Position numbers and translations under genes: made by a program. This document shows positions 9,685-50,822 of a stretch of DNA of 64,000 bases, piece by piece. The DNA is from an uncultured Candidatus Cloacimonadota bacterium. GTDB taxonomy: Bacteria; Cloacimonadota; Cloacimonadia; Cloacimonadales; WRIO01. The stretch lies in assembly GCA_964573665.1 (NCBI GenBank), contig CAZNKI010000015.1, forward strand, positions 556 through 64,555. The letters run 5' to 3'. Each line of letters opens with the position of its first letter. The first letter of the stretch is position 1. A model generated the notes under the pieces. The model ran no database searches and was not told where the DNA came from. It saw only the letters and a list, made by a program, of their open reading frames with translations.

Positions 9685-9851
9685 CGCAACCTGGTAGGTT
9701 GCGATACGATTGTATGGCAATCTACCAGATTGCCTATTTCTTTAAGATAAATATCGCAAGCTAATAGTTCGCATTTCAAATCAGCAAACAAGGATGTTTG
9801 CAGAACAATGATATTCGTAGACGAGGACGTCCACGAACACAGACGTCCTCG
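9685..9851. repeat. array of five short stem-loops (REP-like hairpin cluster)
   Basis: Hairpins read directly: CGCAACCT-GGT-AGGTTGCG (9685-9703), GGCAATCT-ACC-AGATTGCC (9716-9734), an imperfect GCAAGCT-AAT-AGTTCGC, GCAAACA-AGG-ATGTTTGC (9784-9801), and CGAGGACGTC-N10-GACGTCCTCG (9822-9851). Related hairpins recur at 13.35-13.44, 13.82-13.91 and 36.06-36.17 kb. Confidence 0.7.
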
Positions 9852-10808: not shown

Positions 10809-12644
10809 TTATTTTATTAAGGGCAGAAGAACTGAAAATGTGCTTCCTTTATTAATTTCAGATTGTACGATGATTTGTCCGTAATGCAGATCCGTAAGTC
10901 TTTTCACAATTGACAGCCCTAAACCCGTACTGCTTTCTCCCTTGGTTCCTTTTCTGCTGGCTTTGGTAAATGGATCAAACACTTTCTGAATCGCATCAGC
11001 TGGAATGCCGATTCCTTGATCACATATCATTAATTCAGCAAAATCATCCCTTTTTTGAGTGATGATCTTTATCTCAGATTCTGGGAAACTAAATTTACAG
11101 GCATTTGAAGTTAGATTAAACAGTATTTGCCAAAACTTCTCAAAATTGATATTTACCATTAATGGTTCAGGATGCTTATCAATACTCACATGCAATTTTT
11201 TATGTTTAGCCTGAAAGTATAGTGAGTCTTCATAATGTTCAATAAATTCATTCAAATTTGTAGCAACCAAGTTCAGTTTAAAATCAGGCATCTGAATCTT
11301 CGAAGTCTCAAGAATGCTATTCACCAAATCTAAAGCTTGCGTGGAAGTCTCATAAATCATTTCTGTAATTTCATTATTGAAGTCTTTTTTCTGATCTAAA
11401 ATATATCGGCTGGCAGTTTTAATGCCCCCAAGGAGATTTTTCAGATCATGAGAAACGATATTGAGAATCGAATCTTTGGACTTGTTTGTCTCAATCAATT
11501 CTTTCTTTTGCTGTTCCATTTCCTGATATGAAAAAATCAGAGCTTCATTCTTCTGTTTTAATAACTCACTCTCTCTTTTCTTTTGTTCAAATTCAAACTC
11601 AGACTGAAGTCTTTTTGCTTCTGCACTCAGATTAATAGAAAACATCTTATCCTTGATTTCATGAGCTTTTTTGTAATATTGAGCAGAAGTTTCGAAATCT
11701 TTTACTTTAAACTTAAATGAAGCATAATCCAGATAAAGTCGGGCGATAATCTCGGTATCCTCTATCACAGGAGATAGCTCAAAAGCGCTTAAATATTGCT
11801 TTTCAGCATTTTCAAAATCATTCTTTGAAGATGAGATCCCCGCAAGTTCCTGAATATTCTGCATGATACCTTGTTTAAAGTTCAGTTTCTCACAAAGCTG
11901 TAGTGATTTTTGATAGTAATCATAGGCAAAATCAAGTTGATCTTTAACTTTATACAAAGAAGCAAGATTTCTGTAAATCAGTGATAAAAGATAATAATCT
12001 TGAGTATTCTCGATCAACTTCAAAGCTCGTTTCATATAAGCCATTGCCAGGGACATATCACCAATTTCACGGTAGTTGTTGCTGATATTGTTCAATGTCA
12101 TCCCAATACTGCTCACATCTTTATTGTGTGAACGTATCTTTAGTGATAAACGTGAATAATACAAGGCATTTTTTCTGTCTTTAAAACGGGAATAAAAGCC
12201 ACCCAGGTTGTGATAAACTTTTCCTAATAAATGTTGATCCTCCATTTGTGAAAGCGGTCCTAGCAATTCCAGATTTCTCTCTATGGCGTCATGAGTTCGA
12301 CCCAAAGATGCTTCCACATTGGCAATGTTGATCATAAGGTTGATATAAGCGTCCAGATCTTTTTCTTTATCAAGAAAGCGTAAAGCAGACAAAAGATGAA
12401 CCTCTGCCTTGTTAAAATGCCCCATCATTGCACAATTGATCCCTGCTAACTGATAATAAACATATCGATCTCGGCTTGAAAGGTTTTCTCCCGCAATATT
12501 AAAAATCAGATCAATGACATCACAAGAGTCTTGCCATTGTTGCTTTTTCGCAAATTCCTCAGTTCTGTCTTTTAAATAATTATATTTTTCATCTATGCTG
12601 TTTAAGTGCTCACATTCCTGTTTCACAAGGTCGATGCTATTCAT
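10809..12644 (-). CDS. cytoplasmic TPR-repeat sensor histidine kinase
   Basis: About 380 aa of TPR-like repeats, then a coiled coil, then an H-box NIVSHDLKNLLGGI and an HATPase domain (DQGIGIP ... GLGLSIVKRL). No TM segments. The track start at 12683 is a TTG lying inside a TTGACA-N17-TACATT promoter, so I prefer the ATG at 12644 (MNSIDLV). Confidence 0.85.
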   Translation of the reverse strand: MNSIDLVKQECEHLNSIDEKYNYLKDRTEEFAKKQQWQDSCDVIDLIFNIAGENLSSRDRYVYYQLAGINCAMMGHFNKAEVHLLSALRFLDKEKDLDAYINLMINIANVEASLGRTHDAIERNLELLGPLSQMEDQHLLGKVYHNLGGFYSRFKDRKNALYYSRLSLKIRSHNKDVSSIGMTLNNISNNYREIGDMSLAMAYMKRALKLIENTQDYYLLSLIYRNLASLYKVKDQLDFAYDYYQKSLQLCEKLNFKQGIMQNIQELAGISSSKNDFENAEKQYLSAFELSPVIEDTEIIARLYLDYASFKFKVKDFETSAQYYKKAHEIKDKMFSINLSAEAKRLQSEFEFEQKKRESELLKQKNEALIFSYQEMEQQKKELIETNKSKDSILNIVSHDLKNLLGGIKTASRYILDQKKDFNNEITEMIYETSTQALDLVNSILETSKIQMPDFKLNLVATNLNEFIEHYEDSLYFQAKHKKLHVSIDKHPEPLMVNINFEKFWQILFNLTSNACKFSFPESEIKIITQKRDDFAELMICDQGIGIPADAIQKVFDPFTKASRKGTKGESSTGLGLSIVKRLTDLHYGQIIVQSEINKGSTFSVLLPLIK

Positions 12645-12837
12645 ATCTTCTCCGTCATTTTTCTGTTTTTGATAATGTAACAAGCTATATTCGCATTTGT
12701 CAAGGAAATGTTTTGTAGAATTATTTTCAAAAGGGAGTTTCGAATCTCATATTTGAATAAAAAAGCCTATAGTATTCGTAAATATTTTATATTTTGATGT
12801 GCCGATTTTTCATCATTATCGATTCGTTTCTATGAAT

Positions 12838-12954
12838 AAAATAGTTGAACCGAGAGCAAGGCGAGACGAAACGGAGGGTATGCCTGAGGTTTTTCGTAAA
12901 AATATTAGGTTTTTTGAAGAAAAATTGGCTTTGGGAGATAGTTGATATCAAGTA
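12838..12954 (+). repeat. ~117-nt intergenic repeat module X, copy 1
   Basis: AAATAGTTGAACCGAG..CGAGACGAAACGGAG ... TTGATATCAAGTA. It aligns with the reverse complement of 36213-36328. Confidence 0.65.
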
Positions 12955-13016
12955 ATTCAATAAAGTAATATCTTTAGAAAAGAAGGTTGGCATAACATTA
13001 AAAGCTTTATTATCAT

Positions 13017-13444
13017 CGATATAAACAATGACTACCCCGTCACTGGCATTGCCAAACCTCTACATTAGGGAAAAAGTTGCATGTGAATTTTAGCTGAATT
13101 GGGATATTTAGCTGTTTGAGCTGAACAATTAATTGGAAATCTGAATCATCCCGTAAATAGTATTAGTACGACCAGCTCAGTTTATTTTATTTATTTCCAA
13201 ATCCATTTATAATTTATAATCCATAATTCACCATTATTTAACCTCTGTGGAGGGGTGGACGCCTTGGCGGACGGGATGGTCAGCTCTTGCTAATGCTCTA
13301 ACTGTATGTAGAGAACCGTTTTATCGCACCTAATATCCTAAAGTAACCCACCAGGTTGCGATTTTTAACGAGCACTCCGTTTGCAGAAATGGTTCAAGCA
13401 GGGATGCTTGAACAACGAAGAAGCAAGCTGGTAGTTTGCTTTAC
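13017..13444 (+). repeat. large non-coding tandem repeat unit, copy A (428 nt, carries a ~60-nt AT-rich insertion at 13180-13242)
   Basis: Direct alignment to copy B. 13286-13444 is identical to 13756-13914 (159 nt), and the central ~108 nt differ at one position. No ORF is conserved. Confidence 0.85.
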
Positions 13445-13544
13445 GATTGTCGATATCTATCACCCCTAAAGGGGCTCTGATTATTGGCATTTGTTTATTA
13501 AGGATTCTGGCGTTCTAAATCATCGTTAAAACAATGTCGATCAA

Positions 13545-13914
13545 CGATATAAACAATGATCACCCCGTCAGCTGGCACTGCCAAACCTCTTCAGAGGGAA
13601 AAAAGTTGCATGTGAATTTTAGCTGATTTGGGATATTTAGCTGTTTGAGCTGAACAATTAATTGGAAATCTGAATCATCCCGTAAATAGTATTAGTACGA
13701 CCAGCTCAATTCCCCTCTGTGGAGGTGGACGCCTTGGCGGACGGGGTGGTCAGTTCTTGCTAATGCTCTAACTGTATGTAGAGAACCGTTTTATCGCACC
13801 TAATATCCTAAAGTAACCCACCAGGTTGCGATTTTTAACGAGCACTCCGTTTGCAGAAATGGTTCAAGCAGGGATGCTTGAACAACGAAGAAGCAAGCTG
13901 GTAGTTTGCTTTAC
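13545..13914 (+). repeat. large non-coding tandem repeat unit, copy B (370 nt)
   Basis: Same orientation as copy A, 528 bp downstream. Contains many short hairpins and a 9-bp long-range complement: CACCCCGTC (13561-13569) with GACGGGGTG (13740-13748). Confidence 0.85.
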
Positions 13915-14001
13915 AAAAGGAATACAGATGATATCACACTCAGGCACATCTTCTTTCTATCCTGTAGAAAAGTCAAAAATGCAAGCAAGCCGAAAAAATA
14001 G

Positions 14002-14040
14002 TTTGACAATCAAAGCACTTGATTTACTTTGACAATCAAA
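14002..14040. promoter_or_regulatory. two direct copies of TTTGACAATCAAA (pseudo-palindrome TTGA-CAA-TCAA), candidate MarR operator/promoter
   Basis: Copies at 14002-14014 and 14028-14040, immediately upstream of the marR-family gene. Each contains a TTGACA -35-like hexamer. Confidence 0.45.
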
Positions 14041-14062
14041 ATATTAAGTTTGAGGAGATGAG

Positions 14063-27934: not shown

Positions 27935-28952
27935 AAACATTATATCTCGAAGAATTATTGTTCGATCTCTGATATTATCCATATTGCTTACTGAATTAAT
28001 TTTCTTTTTTTTAGAAACTGAGATCCAGTACTTTATCAACAATATTATCCGAACTGTCAGTGGAAAAGCTGTTATTGCATCAACGCATTATGATGAAGAT
28101 GGAATTCCATATACCATTTATCCCGATGCAAAAAAGCAGTACAACCCTCTCTTTATCGCCAATGAAGGAAACGCTCAATACCGTTTGATCAATGAAGGAA
28201 AAGATGCTAAAACATTCTTTCATATTGTAAGATATCTTGAAAAAGAAAGCATACTTCAAGATGACAAAGCACGAATTCCTTATCATTTTGATTTTTCATA
28301 TCGTTCGATCCCCATTAAAGCCCCGTGGTTTTCCAGTTTAGCCCATGGATCAGTGATGCTTGTTTTTCAAAAGGCATATATACTCAGTGGAAATATGGAA
28401 TATCAAAGACTTGCTCAGGCATATCGTAATGGTCTGGATCAGCCTGATATTGGACTAACTTATCATCAAGGGGCAGATAAAATCTGGTTTGAAGAGTATC
28501 CAATTAAAGAAAAACCACACGTGTTAAACGGGATGATGGAAATATTGCTTAATCTTCATGAACACTATCAGTTAAGCGGTGATACGATTTCTTATCAGTA
28601 CTTTAAAAAAGGGATGAATGCGCTTGTTGATGATTTACCATTATATTCCAACGGCATCTTTTCATTCTATGACCGCCGAAAGGTGCCTTGTAACCGATCC
28701 TATCATGAAATGCATATCGATCAATTAAAACAATTGTATGAAATCAGCCATGAAGAAAAACTTCTTCCATTTATCAAACAATGGTCTGTTGGAGTGTATA
28801 TGCCTACTATCATTCAAGTCATCGTTGCAAAATCCATAAAAAGGATTGCGCTTTATTTGAGCTTTATCTTTGCTTTATTTATAATTTCATCATGTTCGGT
28901 ATATCTGTTAAAGAAGAATCCAAAAAACCCCGACGGGGTGACAGGATTATAG
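27924..28952 (+). CDS. membrane-anchored D-glucuronyl C5-epimerase C-terminal-domain-like protein
   Basis: N- and C-terminal TM segments. PWFSSLAHGSVMLVFQKAY and VLNGMMEILLNLHEHY resemble the conserved blocks of the C5-epimerase family (from memory). The last ~8 codons are encoded by the first REP hairpin. Confidence 0.5.
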   Translation: MHFKNIISRRIIVRSLILSILLTELIFFFLETEIQYFINNIIRTVSGKAVIASTHYDEDGIPYTIYPDAKKQYNPLFIANEGNAQYRLINEGKDAKTFFHIVRYLEKESILQDDKARIPYHFDFSYRSIPIKAPWFSSLAHGSVMLVFQKAYILSGNMEYQRLAQAYRNGLDQPDIGLTYHQGADKIWFEEYPIKEKPHVLNGMMEILLNLHEHYQLSGDTISYQYFKKGMNALVDDLPLYSNGIFSFYDRRKVPCNRSYHEMHIDQLKQLYEISHEEKLLPFIKQWSVGVYMPTIIQVIVAKSIKRIALYLSFIFALFIISSCSVYLLKKNPKNPDGVTGL

Positions 28953-29097
28953 AAGGTGACAGGATTATAGAAATTGTAACAACATCATCCATTAAAACCC
29001 CGAAGGGGTGAAAGGATTATAGAAGGTGACAGGATTATAGGATTATAAAAATAACCAAAAAATCATTCAAAACCCCGAAGGGGTGAAAGGATTATAG
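28928..29097 (+). repeat. three tandem REP units (~72-nt period): hairpin CCCCG-AC/AA-GGGG plus tail TGA[CA]AGGATTATAG
   Basis: REP1 at 28928-28952, REP2 at 28998-29022, REP3 at 29073-29097. Extra tail copies AAGGTGACAGGATTATAG at 28953-28970 and 29023-29040. Confidence 0.85.
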
Positions 29098-29101
29098 GAT
29101 T

Positions 29102-29563
29102 ATGGCAGGTACATTTTCACAGATTTACATTCAATATGTTTTTGCTGTTAAAGGCAGAGAAAACCTATTACAAAAACCTTGGCGTGATGATTTGTTTAAA
29201 TATATTGCAGGCATCATCAAAGGTAAAGGTCAAAAACCAATTATCGTTAATGGTGTTGCTGATCATGTACATGTTTTTGTTGGATTAAAGCCTATTGTTA
29301 ACATATCAGATTTGCTTCGAGATATTAAAAACAATTCATCCAATTACATCAACGAAAAGAATCTCGTCCATGGAAGATTCTCCTGGCAAGAAGGCTATGG
29401 TGCTTTTTCTTATGCTCATTCACAAATTGAAAGCGTATATCGATATATTTCTAATCAAGAAGAACACCATCAGAAGAAGAAGTTTAAAGATGAATACATC
29501 GATTTTCTTCAAAAATTTGAAATAGAATACAATGAAAAACATTTGTTCGAATGGATTGATTAA
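29102..29563 (+). CDS. IS200/IS605-family Y1 (HUH) transposase, REP-associated tyrosine transposase (RAYT)-like
   Basis: HUH motif (DHVHVFVG). Catalytic-Tyr region FSWQEGYGAFSYAHSQIESVYRYISNQEEHH. 153 aa. Confidence 0.85.
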   Translation: MAGTFSQIYIQYVFAVKGRENLLQKPWRDDLFKYIAGIIKGKGQKPIIVNGVADHVHVFVGLKPIVNISDLLRDIKNNSSNYINEKNLVHGRFSWQEGYGAFSYAHSQIESVYRYISNQEEHHQKKKFKDEYIDFLQKFEIEYNEKHLFEWID

Positions 29564-29576
29564 AACTTCGATTTTT

Positions 29577-29602
29577 CTATAATCCTGTCACCCAGTCGGG
29601 GT
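29577..29602 (-). repeat. inverted REP copy downstream of the RAYT gene
   Basis: Its reverse complement, AACCCCGACTGGGTGACAGGATTATAG, matches the upstream REP consensus. Confidence 0.8.
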
Positions 29603-29664
29603 TGATATGGATAATAACAATTGATTGATCATGACACGTTTGTTGCATTTTTGCAATTAGTTCT

Positions 29665-30057: not shown

Positions 30058-30071
30058 ATACTTGGATGAGT

Positions 30072-30096
30072 TATGGAGCCGGCTCGGCTCGAGCCG
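30072..30096. repeat. 25-nt GC-rich palindromic element TATGGAGCCGGCTCGGCTCGAGCCG, copy 1
   Basis: Identical to 42617-42641. Contains overlapping palindromes GAGCCGGCTC and CGGCTCGAGCCG. It begins 15 nt after the stop codon of a plus-strand gene. Confidence 0.8.
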
Positions 30097-30168
30097 AAAA
30101 TCCAGATATTTTTTAAAACTATGATCTATTTATCTTAGTGCTTAAATCGTATTCTTTGTATTGTTGCA

Positions 30169-31879: not shown

Positions 31880-31897
31880 AAGAAGCTCCTTTACTAA

Positions 31898-35863: not shown

Positions 35864-36063
35864 TAGTCCTCCAATTTATACTTTTTTATTATAATTCTTT
35901 CTTAGATTGCCAAATTATTATTTCGCAAGGAAGTGTCAAGGATAAAAATTTGGATAATTCATTCCTCTCTTTGTAGGCGTGACCTCGTCAGCTGATGCTA
36001 AGTTCATTGTTTATATTGTTGTTGTTCTATCATTTATCTATGTTTTTCATTTTCTCGTAGGGT

Positions 36064-36166
36064 GCAGACCTGTGTGTCTGTCCAATTATTCGTAAGGTAA
36101 TCTACCAGATTGCTAAAATCGTTGTGCATGCATCCCTGCTTGCACCATTTCAGATGGGCAGGCGTA
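36064..36166. repeat. cluster of REP-like hairpins
   Basis: CAGAC-N6-GTCTG, GTAATCT-ACC-AGATTGC (36097-36113), GTGCATGCA-TCCC-TGCTTGCAC (one mismatch), and GGGCAGG-N7-CCTGCCC (36146-36166). The stems are related to those at 9.7 and 13.4 kb. Confidence 0.65.
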
Positions 36167-36212
36167 AAACCTGCCCCTACATGCAAAATCTTCGATACAG
36201 GAAGACCGAAAA

Positions 36213-36328
36213 TACTTGATATCAAATTTCTCCAGGAGTGGTTTTTTGGTCAGAAAACGCATCATTTTGTCAATTTACCATAGGTTAACACTCAGTTCCG
36301 TCTCGGTTCACCCTCGGTTCAGCTATTT
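36213..36328 (-). repeat. ~116-nt intergenic repeat module X, copy 2 (inverted relative to copy 1)
   Basis: The reverse complement aligns with 12838-12954. Contains the tandem CTCGGTTCAcc/CTCGGTTCAgc. Confidence 0.65.
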
Positions 36329-36693
36329 GTTTTATATCGCTTATCTAGTTTTTGACACAAAAACTATCAAATATTGATAAAATCTTCACTCAATTTACAG
36401 ATGGCACCATTAGTCTTCAAAATCAACTTGAACCGTTGATTCATATTGATCATCGGAAGTGATAATTAGATTGTTTGTGCCTTCTTCAAATCTGATCTTG
36501 ATGTTGTAAATGATATGGTCAACTTTACCATTTTCATCGTAGATATTTTGATAGGAGTATGGCACACCAGCAATTTGCCCAACAAAGAAGGTATTATGTC
36601 AAGGAAAAACATTTACATATTATTAAAAAAGAAATGAGAAATTATCTTGACGGTATCCCTCCATTGTGTTTATATTTAAAAATTGGAGGGATA

Positions 36694-42569: not shown

Positions 42570-42616
42570 TTAAGCGTTGGGACTTCTTGATGAACAATAT
42601 GAGAGCTTTGAATTAG

Positions 42617-42711
42617 TATGGAGCCGGCTCGGCTCGAGCCGTAAATGCCGATTAATAAAGGACTCAATAAATAAGAAATCACCCTTTTTCTTCTACATCA
42701 AAGTTCTCAAT
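42617..42711 (+). repeat. ~94-nt intergenic repeat unit, copy 1 (starts with the 25-nt GC-rich palindromic element)
   Basis: 42617-42641 is identical to 30072-30096. The whole unit aligns at roughly 70 percent (by eye) with 42777-42869. Confidence 0.7.
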
Positions 42712-42776: not shown

Positions 42777-42869
42777 ATGGAGATGACTCTGATCAAACTG
42801 TAAATGCTGATTAATAAAAAATCCAATGTTTTGAAAAGACTTTTATTCTTCTAAATCTAAGCTCTCATT
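42777..42869 (+). repeat. ~93-nt intergenic repeat unit, copy 2 (palindromic core decayed), abutting the hepT stop codon
   Basis: Shared blocks ATGGAG, GTAAATGC[CT]GATTAATAAA and TTCTTCTA[CA]ATC[AT]AAG[TC]TCTCA. Confidence 0.6.
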
Positions 42870-43212
42870 AATTTTCAAGAAGTATCGTTTCAATGTCTTC
42901 TTTTAAATATGGCAAATAAATGCAGATAACATCCCAAAGTAAAGAATAGTCGATACCGAAATAATGATGGATTAATCGATCTCTCATACGGGCAATATTC
43001 TTCCAATTAGTTTGTGGATATTGGTCTGTCACATCATTAGGTATGTTTTTTACTGCTTCTCCAATGATTTCAATACTTCTGACAAAAGCTCTTTTAAGAA
43101 TCTCATTGGAAATAAATTGATCATAAGTTAAGTCTTGACTATTTTTTTCAATAAAAATAATCTCATCCATAATATGTTTTGAATATTCTTTATAATTCTT
43201 CATAAATGACAT
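42868..43212 (-). CDS. hepT: HepT (DUF86) RNase toxin of a type VII toxin-antitoxin pair
   Basis: Rx4HxY active-site motif (RDRLIHHY). 114 aa. Overlaps the upstream nucleotidyltransferase gene by 23 nt. Confidence 0.85.
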   Translation of the reverse strand: MSFMKNYKEYSKHIMDEIIFIEKNSQDLTYDQFISNEILKRAFVRSIEIIGEAVKNIPNDVTDQYPQTNWKNIARMRDRLIHHYFGIDYSLLWDVICIYLPYLKEDIETILLEN

Positions 43213-50639: not shown

Positions 50640-50822
50640 TAAATATTTTTTGTATTCAAAATATTAAAGAATTTTTTCTGTTTGGTATTTTTGCCGTCAA
50701 TAAAATTATTTAGAATTTCACCAATTTATTAACAATTATTTCTAACATCATTAAGAAACTTTTCTACAGGATAGAAAGAAGAGGTGAATGAGAGAGATGC
50801 CTTCAGTCCCCCATCAATAAAC

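Follow-up and report, generated by a model that had tools for sequence, protein, structure and literature searches.

Several families of extragenic palindromes are known in bacteria. REP (repetitive extragenic palindromic) sequences occurring as two inverted copies around a spacer and folding into one long hairpin (REPINs) have been described together with the REP-associated tyrosine transposases, RAYTs (Bertels and Rainey 2011, PMC3116915; Nunvar et al. 2010, PMC2817692). Clusters of REPs and of bacterial interspersed mosaic elements (BIMEs), the GTAG-tagged REP superfamily, and the TIRYT genes, which encode tyrosine transposases and are flanked by terminal inverted repeats carrying the motif GGGGWSAS, have been surveyed by Di Nocera et al. 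2013 (PMC3733652). REPs are also known targets of insertion sequences (ISs), e.g. IS1397, ISKpn1 and ISPpu9 (Tobes and Pareja 2006, PMC1525189; PMC8450116). We found no mention of Cloacimonadota in the REP literature and no published account of such repeats in this phylum. Here, we describe a tandemly repeated noncoding unit in a 64-kb stretch of DNA from an uncultured Cloacimonadota bacterium (contig CAZNKI010000015.1; this whole stretch is referred to as the window). The unit is most likely a mosaic of at least two unrelated palindromic DNA repeat families from a narrow Cloacimonadota lineage, and we think it probable that a mosaic of REPIN-like and BIME-like extragenic palindromes has been duplicated locally.

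The unit lies in a gene-free gap (12684-14062) between a histidine kinase gene and a MarR operon. The original prediction had found no credible open reading frame (ORF) there, and indeed none exceeds 68 aa and all of the smaller ones are unsupported. It had also described two near-identical copies in the same orientation with a period of 528 bp, an identical 3' portion, differences bunched near the 5' end and an AT-rich insertion in copy A. These statements are borne out by the direct repeat and its alignment: both copies are on the same strand with a start-to-start distance of 528 nt, the final 159 nt are identical (13286-13444 = 13756-13914), and most differences fall within the first ~60 nt. 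The central 108 nt, for which a single difference had been given, actually contain two mismatches. An 18-nt start motif is doubled ahead of copy B (13521-13538 and 13540-13557). The copies and their parts are as follows.

13012-13446, plus strand: copy A of the composite unit (start motif, palindromic element, middle hairpin, REP cluster), from direct repeat and alignment
13540-13917, plus strand: copy B of the composite unit, from direct repeat and alignment
13558-13751, plus strand: PE-B, the palindromic element (PE) of copy B, 194 nt with termini GATCACCCCGTC and GACGGGGTGGTC, one long hairpin; its arms match the IS flanks in contigs L096, L113/L115 and L117
13030-13281, plus strand: PE-A, the same element in copy A, with one mismatch in the terminal helix and the internal AT-rich insertion
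13180-13241, plus strand: AT-rich insertion of 62 nt in the right-arm hairpin region of PE-A; missing from the relative L040 and from copy B, which has ATTCC instead
13766-13783, also 13296-13313 in copy A, plus strand: middle hairpin CTCTA-N8-TAGAG, inside the linker 13752-13812
13813-13829, also 13343-13359, minus strand: degenerate REP in reverse orientation, GTAACCCACCAGGTTGC, followed by a T-run; from comparison with 9686-9702 and with the X and Y hairpin families
13862-13883, also 13392-13413, plus strand: hairpin 1, GTTCAAGCA-GGGA-TGCTTGAAC, whose core is the reverse complement of the metagenome-contig repeat CAAGCATCCTGCTTG
13893-13914, also 13423-13444, plus strand: hairpin 2, GCAAGCT-GGT-AGTTTGC followed by TTTAC, a Y-type REP that reads GTAAA plus palindrome on the other strand

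PE makes up the 5' half of the unit. It is an imperfect palindrome in which inverted arms of ~40 nt, each consisting of a conserved terminus (GAYCACCCCGTC) and then a small GC-rich hairpin, enclose a core of ~110 nt; its ends read GAYCACCCCGTC and GACGGGGTGGTC. The terminal helix has 13 pairs, and 15 of the 16 positions of 13557-13572 are paired with 13737-13752. The long-range 9-bp complement noted in the original prediction is thus real and longer than claimed, being 88% complementary over these 16 nt. The short stems that it listed are all present as well, except that GGCA-C-TGCC is impossible with a 1-nt loop and GGC-ACT-GCC is possible in its place. PE folds with z = -4.3 as DNA and z = -5.1 as RNA.

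With two inverted arms around a spacer that fold into one long hairpin, PE has the architecture of a REPIN. Like the elements of REPIN/RAYT systems, it varies between close relatives, and the motif that its arm termini share with the inverted repeats flanking a Y1 transposase gene, apparently single-copy, may be a further likeness. However, PE is about twice as long as a typical REPIN, its termini are of the CGTC type rather than the GTAG type, and the Y1 protein falls below the RAYT cutoff. REPINs occur in tens to hundreds of copies per genome; the PE copies seen here are two and one remnant in the 64 kb, together with IS-interrupted ones in three or four further lineages, namely L113/L115, L117 and L096 and, judged from the right flank alone, probably L118.

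The 3' third of the unit is a cluster of hairpins of a different kind. Their stems of 7-9 bp and loops of GGT/ACC or GGGA correspond to the 20-40 bp extragenic stem-loop that characterizes REPs, and an unpaired GTAG-like tag is present, although it reads GTAA or GTAT in many copies. A metagenome scan with the pattern GCAANCTGGTAGNTTGCNTTAC returned 34 contigs; taxonomic assignment of those with arrays gave no result. In most of the contigs, the hairpin Y alternates with a hairpin X (CAAGCAACCTGCTTG) at a spacing of 31-43 nt, and a third hairpin Z (CAAGCATCYTGCTTG) is also common; apart from one extra base, the hairpin 1 core (CAAGCAGGGATGCTTG) is Z read on the opposite strand. The X consensus consists of GTAG plus a palindrome, and the reverse complement of Y of GTAAC plus a near-identical palindrome. 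X and Y are thus one kind of repeat in opposite orientations. This layout is that of BIMEs and of the GTAG-tagged REP superfamily (PMC2817692, PMC3733652).

The family has many dispersed copies. In 140 kb, hairpins of type Y numbered 78 and those of type X 42, whereas 260 kb from loci outside Cloacimonadota contained neither. Besides the 34 contigs, there are at least eight copies at three loci of the window, and a Cloacimonadota metagenome-assembled genome (MAG; L004 7653-7823) has a sixfold tandem array directly 5' of the gpsA start codon, whose 30-nt units are composed of a GCAAGCTGGTAGCTTGC hairpin and ATTAC. At the equivalent site of the window (31880-31897), this array is missing and the corresponding genes are 18 nt apart. 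Across copies, the fifth stem pair varies (G-C, U-A, C-G, G.U) with the remaining stem fixed, which fits a hairpin that is recognized by sequence plus shape. Hairpins 1, 2 and their relatives resemble the GTAG-tagged REPs in being 17-22-nt palindromes with an unpaired GTAG/GTAA end tag and in forming regularly spaced alternating arrays; they differ in that the tag is often GTAA or GTAT, the family is AT-richer than classical REPs, and the cluster lies between divergent genes.

Viral contigs gave 25 single, non-arrayed matches to a 15-base hairpin 2 pattern, which we take as chance. The hairpin 1 module was absent from genome and metagenome contigs when scanned for as an exact pattern, and from viral contigs even with a looser one; the middle hairpin had no relatives by BLAST against all loci, and no BLAST match to copy B was obtained in phages and plasmids. 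Exact copies of the neighboring proteins occur only in short Logan contigs from a few sequencing runs, and these contigs end inside the repeats; short-read contigs from several samples stop at the REP cluster. Samples SRR10083292-96 and SRR15311598 harbor the lineage.

Within the window, the parts of the unit are not confined to the gap. Some recur at 36004-36336, where a second mosaic occupies the minus strand, and single hairpins recur at 9685-9801.

36004-36336, minus strand: second, shorter mosaic 5' of rpmH, from self-comparison and pattern searches
36336-36210, minus strand: module H of the rpmH mosaic
36151-36090, minus strand: hairpin 1, hairpin 2 and TTAC of the rpmH mosaic
36021-36004, minus strand: start motif of the rpmH mosaic
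36003-35970, minus strand: decayed PE left arm of the rpmH mosaic
9685-9801: REP cluster between convergent genes, composed of 9685-9703 (plus), 9716-9734 (minus), 9756-9772 (plus, degenerate) and an AGGA-loop hairpin at 9784-9801
12831-12957, plus strand: module H, a 127-nt repeat ahead of the mosaic, found also at the rpmH locus and in L040/L041

The hairpin 1 - hairpin 2 - TTAC segment at rpmH is 82% identical to that of the unit, with compensatory stem changes, and hairpin 2 plus TTAC stands alone at 9685-9734 in alternating orientation. Module H at 12831-12957 is 68% identical to its rpmH counterpart, with conserved ends. It always precedes a REP cluster, and its consensus fold is weak (-10.6 kcal/mol). 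The module, which occurs at 12831-12957 and 36210-36336 (minus strand) of the window, at L040 230-356 and at L041 149-275, contains the perfect palindrome TTGATATCAA as well as a pair of direct half-sites that resemble TGAACCGAG and lie ~11 nt from each other.

Comparison with relatives also involves the surroundings of the two copies, which comprise the following features.

10809-12683, minus strand: TPR histidine kinase gene
12987-13016, plus strand: sigma-70-like promoter match, TTGGCA-18-TATCAT (10/12), directly 5' of copy A; a consensus match only, identical in L040
13453-13490, no strand assigned: spacer hairpin ATCTATCA-CCCC-TAAA-GGGG-CTCTGATTAT between copies A and B, like the Y1-flanking repeats and kept in L041
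from 14063, plus strand: MarR / BV97_02767 / cation-efflux operon

In L040, whose kinase is 93% identical, the locus has module H, the same promoter-like site and a PE that is a mosaic of the A and B variants. In L041/L042 (kinase 83% identical), hairpins 1 and 2 come 56 nt after module H, the spacer hairpin is next, and the locus has neither PE nor the middle part. The 9.7-kb REP cluster is present in L040 and absent in L041, and the species of L040 has other sequence at the position of the rpmH mosaic. That unrelated sequence (L074 1-60, 5' of rpmH) holds a GGGTGACAGATTAATG motif like that of the Y1-flanking repeat. More distant Cloacimonadota have none of the modules upstream of rpmH. Such turnover of modules at short evolutionary distance is more in keeping with selfish or recombining repeats than with a conserved RNA gene.

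The relatives differ from the window in a further respect. They have a membrane-like ORF of 197-203 aa without a Pfam match between the kinase gene and module H (L040 519-1371; L041 ~405-1185), bracketed by direct repeats of ~22 nt from the kinase promoter region (TTGTCAAGGAAATGTTTTGAGG). The window has one copy of this repeat (12698-12716) and no ORF, which suggests that the ORF was lost by recombination between the kinase-promoter repeats. ORF166, beside the rpmH mosaic, was considered as a relative of the 197-aa ORF beside module H, and the two are unrelated.

A candidate for an enzyme acting on PE is encoded at 29.1 kb of the window.

29102-29563, plus strand: Y1 (HUH) transposase gene, Pfam Y1_Tnp 82 bits, single locus
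28924-29097, plus strand: Y1-flanking repeat in three tandem copies, AAAACCCCGA(C/A)GGGGTGA(C/A)AGGATTATAG
29575-29603, minus strand: inverted copy of the Y1-flanking repeat 3' of the gene, 97% over 29 nt

The original prediction regarded this gene as a possible IS200/IS605-type mobilizer of the unit. It is found in one genomic context only, with the contig unbroken at the gene, and AAAACCCCGACGGGGTGACAGGATTATAG stands around it four times, thrice as a direct copy and once inverted; the upstream repeat is triplicated with a period of ~70 nt, and a second GGTGACAGGATTATAG half-copy is present in each unit. A relative of the flanking repeat also lies in the inter-copy spacer at 13453-13490. The arrangement is unlike that of a multicopy IS200 and fits what would be, judged from its layout, a single-copy REPtron/TIRtron-like gene. 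As in TIRYT loci (PMC3733652), the inverted flanks carry a sequence, GGGGTGAC, that fits the GGGGWSAS motif, and dimers elsewhere in the genome are possible; unlike in those loci, an exact fit to the motif is seen in only one of the three upstream copies, and the PE termini read GGGGTGGT. The prediction had further seen a resemblance of CACCCCGTC and GACGGGGTG to the halves of the Y1 repeat. Part of this stands: the 9-mer GACGGGGTG is common to PE termini and Y1-flanking repeats, occurring three times in the window (at the two PE-B termini and in one Y1-flanking repeat) against 0.07 expected. Only GACGGGGTG (plus CAG) is shared, however, and beyond it the similarity is weak.

Further evidence that PE exists in its own right comes from an IS that interrupts it in other lineages. 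Contig L096, from a metagenome, encodes an IS4-family transposase of 478 aa (NCBIfam NF033590, 317 bits) with a Tn5-type N-terminal DNA-binding domain, and its left and right flanks match the left and right PE arms with 85% and 93% identity, respectively. The IS has its own 19-nt ends, CT(T/G)TCCTCTCTACACATCT, which resemble the Tn5 mosaic end at 14-15 of the 19 positions. Direct repeats of 8 bp bracket it within the PE hairpin, namely CTCCACAG in L115/L113 and CTTGATAG in the single contig L117; in L118, known from the right flank alone, CTCCAATG borders the IS end and the hairpin context is the same, and in L096 there is no clear direct repeat around the IS. When the IS and one repeat copy are removed from L115/L113, 105 nt become colinear with the left half of PE at ~73% identity. 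Because the IS bears its own ends and direct repeats and its removal restores a colinear PE, PE is an independent repeat family that occurs in several lineages and that the Tn5-like IS prefers as its target. The IS itself, a Tn5/IS50-like IS4-family member of ~1.9 kb (L096 61-2003 and L113-L118), is seen in the same PE hairpin in several lineages; its closer homologues include contigs from the sample series of the window strain (P0030, 83% identical).

Recurrence of an IS family at the same position of a palindromic repeat is also what characterizes the REP-targeting ISs. The present case differs in that the IS is Tn5/IS50-like (IS4), generates an 8-bp duplication and enters an element of ~194 nt, whereas the known cases are IS3 and IS110 elements in short REPs. 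The repeated use of one PE hairpin suggests a target choice that would be directed by structure.

These observations allow the alternatives to be weighed. In one of them, the 5' half is a MITE, a miniature transposable element with inverted repeats, formed by internal deletion of the IS4-family (Tn5-like) element of L096, with the PE arms as the terminal inverted repeats of the IS. The L096 transposase gene does lie directly between both PE arms, with their left/right asymmetry preserved. But the termini of a MITE should match those of an autonomous IS, and the only IS beside PE arms has different, Tn5-like ends inside the arms, with direct repeats in L115/L113 and L117 and a continuous PE upon its removal; PE is therefore the target of the IS and not its derivative, and we regard the MITE origin as very improbable. 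The whole unit of ~380-430 nt, from the start motif to TTTAC, might be one composite non-autonomous transposon that inserted twice. Such an element would account for the 18 nt 5' and the 165 nt 3' of PE that are common to both copies, and at the rpmH locus, too, a 3' module is followed by a spacer, the start motif and a PE arm. The ends of the unit, however, have neither terminal inverted repeats nor a target duplication, L041 and the rpmH locus have the 3' module without the remainder, and none of the collections searched contained a further full-length copy, so that we give this explanation little chance. The mobile element of the original prediction comes close for the 5' half, which is a long palindromic element, but no single palindrome-associated transposable element (PATE) of the IS200/IS605 type spans the whole unit of 370-428 nt. 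Such a PATE would have unlike left and right ends with similar subterminal hairpins on one strand and would insert 3' of a fixed tetra- or pentanucleotide; here, the hairpin at one end of the unit is unrelated to that at the other, the PE ends are inverted repeats, and there is no conserved target sequence.

The other proposal of the original prediction, a duplicated gene for a large structured noncoding RNA, here of an undescribed class and transcribed from 12987-13016, is the main rival. Tandem duplicated small RNA genes exist, PrrF1/PrrF2 being two near-identical same-strand intergenic copies ~95 nt apart, and the two copies described here share this arrangement; the present units are, however, three to four times longer, consist of dispersed DNA repeats and are known here from sequence alone. 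Copy B folds well compared with shuffles, and better on the plus strand (z = -5.2) than on the minus strand (z = -3.5). Changes in the terminal helix among A, B and L040 are G.U-compatible, the sigma-70-like site is kept in L040, and the 3' 159 nt are highly conserved. On the other hand, as had been predicted from motifs, no known class was recognized: Rfam gave nothing at the gathering threshold and noise only at E<=10 in the window, and 0 matches in the window plus related loci, the best sub-threshold match scoring 22 bits where gathering requires 43. What would be domains of the RNA are DNA repeats that occur independently of one another, in other contexts and in both orientations; the sister species lacks the 5' half at the locus, and relatives of that half are interrupted by ISs. 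Copy B has no counterpart of the promoter-like site, neither copy has a convincing terminator, and one L040 substitution disrupts a predicted inner helix. An RNA gene is therefore unlikely in our judgment. We are equally doubtful that PE and the REP cluster are a domesticated repeat giving a host-function RNA of ~430 nt from 12987-13016, or that PE serves as a landing pad that channels the Tn5-like IS to harmless sites and is kept together with a TIRYT-like Y1 enzyme. Tandem, riboswitch-like leaders of the MarR/cation-efflux operon would agree with the position of the units upstream and on the same strand, but this role is highly improbable: no riboswitch model matches, the same modules lie upstream of rpmH, and between copy B and its start codon the operon has a promoter-like region of its own with a pair of palindromic repeats that resemble operators (TTTGACAATCAAA), one strain (SRR27460537) diverging from the window immediately upstream of 13976, just before this region.

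Several narrower candidates were rejected. A CsrA sponge was considered because the loop of hairpin 1, CAGGGAUG, is CsrA-like, but the L041 loop is AGUA and there are only 8 GGA motifs in 381 nt. A diversity-generating retroelement would bring adenine-specific differences and a reverse transcriptase gene in the vicinity, and the two copies show neither; more broadly, genes for TnpB, IscB, Cas proteins and reverse transcriptase are all missing from the window, which also disposes of a TnpB/IscB guide RNA. Domains 5 and 6 of a group II intron have other stem lengths and bulges, and the Rfam search was empty for them too.

We therefore return to the duplicated mosaic of REPIN-like and BIME-like palindromes. 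Its modular make-up, the separate occurrence of its families elsewhere, the Tn5-like IS in PE and the gain and loss of modules are all seen directly in the compared loci. As to its origin, we suppose that the single-copy Y1 HUH transposase at 29.1 kb, whose flanking inverted repeats share the terminal motif of PE, copies PE in the form of single-stranded hairpin DNA, or formerly did so. Unequal recombination or slippage during replication, in either case between repeats, could have produced the two copies, and gene conversion may later have homogenized the 3' parts. Effects on the host, such as hairpins in transcripts, insulation of the kinase and MarR promoters and a landing site for ISs, would be by-products.

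Some of the findings weigh against this explanation. The Y1 protein scores as IS200-type (61 bits with the NCBIfam IS200/IS605 model, cutoff 55) and falls outside the RAYT clade (19 bits, cutoff 80), and past 9 nt plus CAG the PE termini and the Y1-flanking repeats are only loosely alike. Neither copy of PE has the flanking target-site duplication that a MITE would have (ATAAACAAT versus AGTTCTTGC in copy B and AGCTCTTGC in copy A), and no empty PE-only site was recovered, so that transposition of PE itself is hypothetical. The repeated unit exceeds PE by the 18 nt 5' and 165 nt 3' mentioned above, so that a simple pair of PE insertions does not explain it. The mosaic lies between divergent genes, an unusual position for REPs, which are mostly downstream of genes (PMC3733652). 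Finally, some features are RNA-like: the better fold of the plus strand, terminal-helix substitutions among A, B and L040 that keep G-C or G.U pairs, and the promoter-like site ahead of copy A. Transcription of REPs is common (PMC3733652), so that the region, if transcribed at all, would probably give rise to an RNA as a by-product.

Other repeats were noticed near the locus and elsewhere in the window. Just 5' of the MarR gene, 13999-14014 and 14025-14040 are direct copies of TA(G/C)TTTGACAATCAAA, each with the palindrome TTTGA-CAA-TCAAA, overlapping TTGACA promoter-like boxes; by their position and symmetry, they are probably MarR operators. A 41-nt motif (...CTTCTTTCTATCCTGTAGAAAAGT) is found 3' of copy B (13933-13973) and, with 88% identity, 5' of a 1945-aa ORF (50758-50798, minus strand), and is also listed at L046 1-19. 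A 46-nt repeat with the GC-rich palindrome GGAGCCGGCTCGGCTCGAGCCG lies 3' of two unrelated genes (30062-30107 and 42608-42652, 87% identity), and may be another repeat family or a common terminator; the second copy adjoins a HepT-like ribonuclease gene (42868-43212, minus strand), the toxin of a HepT/MNT pair. As regards the source organism, the YidC of the window is 60-67% identical to that of MAGs labelled Cloacimonadota, and sigma-54 activators and a protein bearing a type IX secretion sorting domain are among the other products encoded in the window.

Repeat mosaics of this kind are known, and the novelty lies in their occurrence in Cloacimonadota. The analysis does away with what had been a misleading hint of a new large RNA. 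Because of the repeats, assemblies from short reads are interrupted at fixed points, which matters for the quality of MAGs in Cloacimonadota. The Tn5-like IS that recurs in one PE hairpin would provide a clean natural case of structure-directed target choice that is biochemically testable. For the phylum itself, an uncultivated group of anaerobic digesters, the locus documents REP/BIME-like and REPIN-like repeats.

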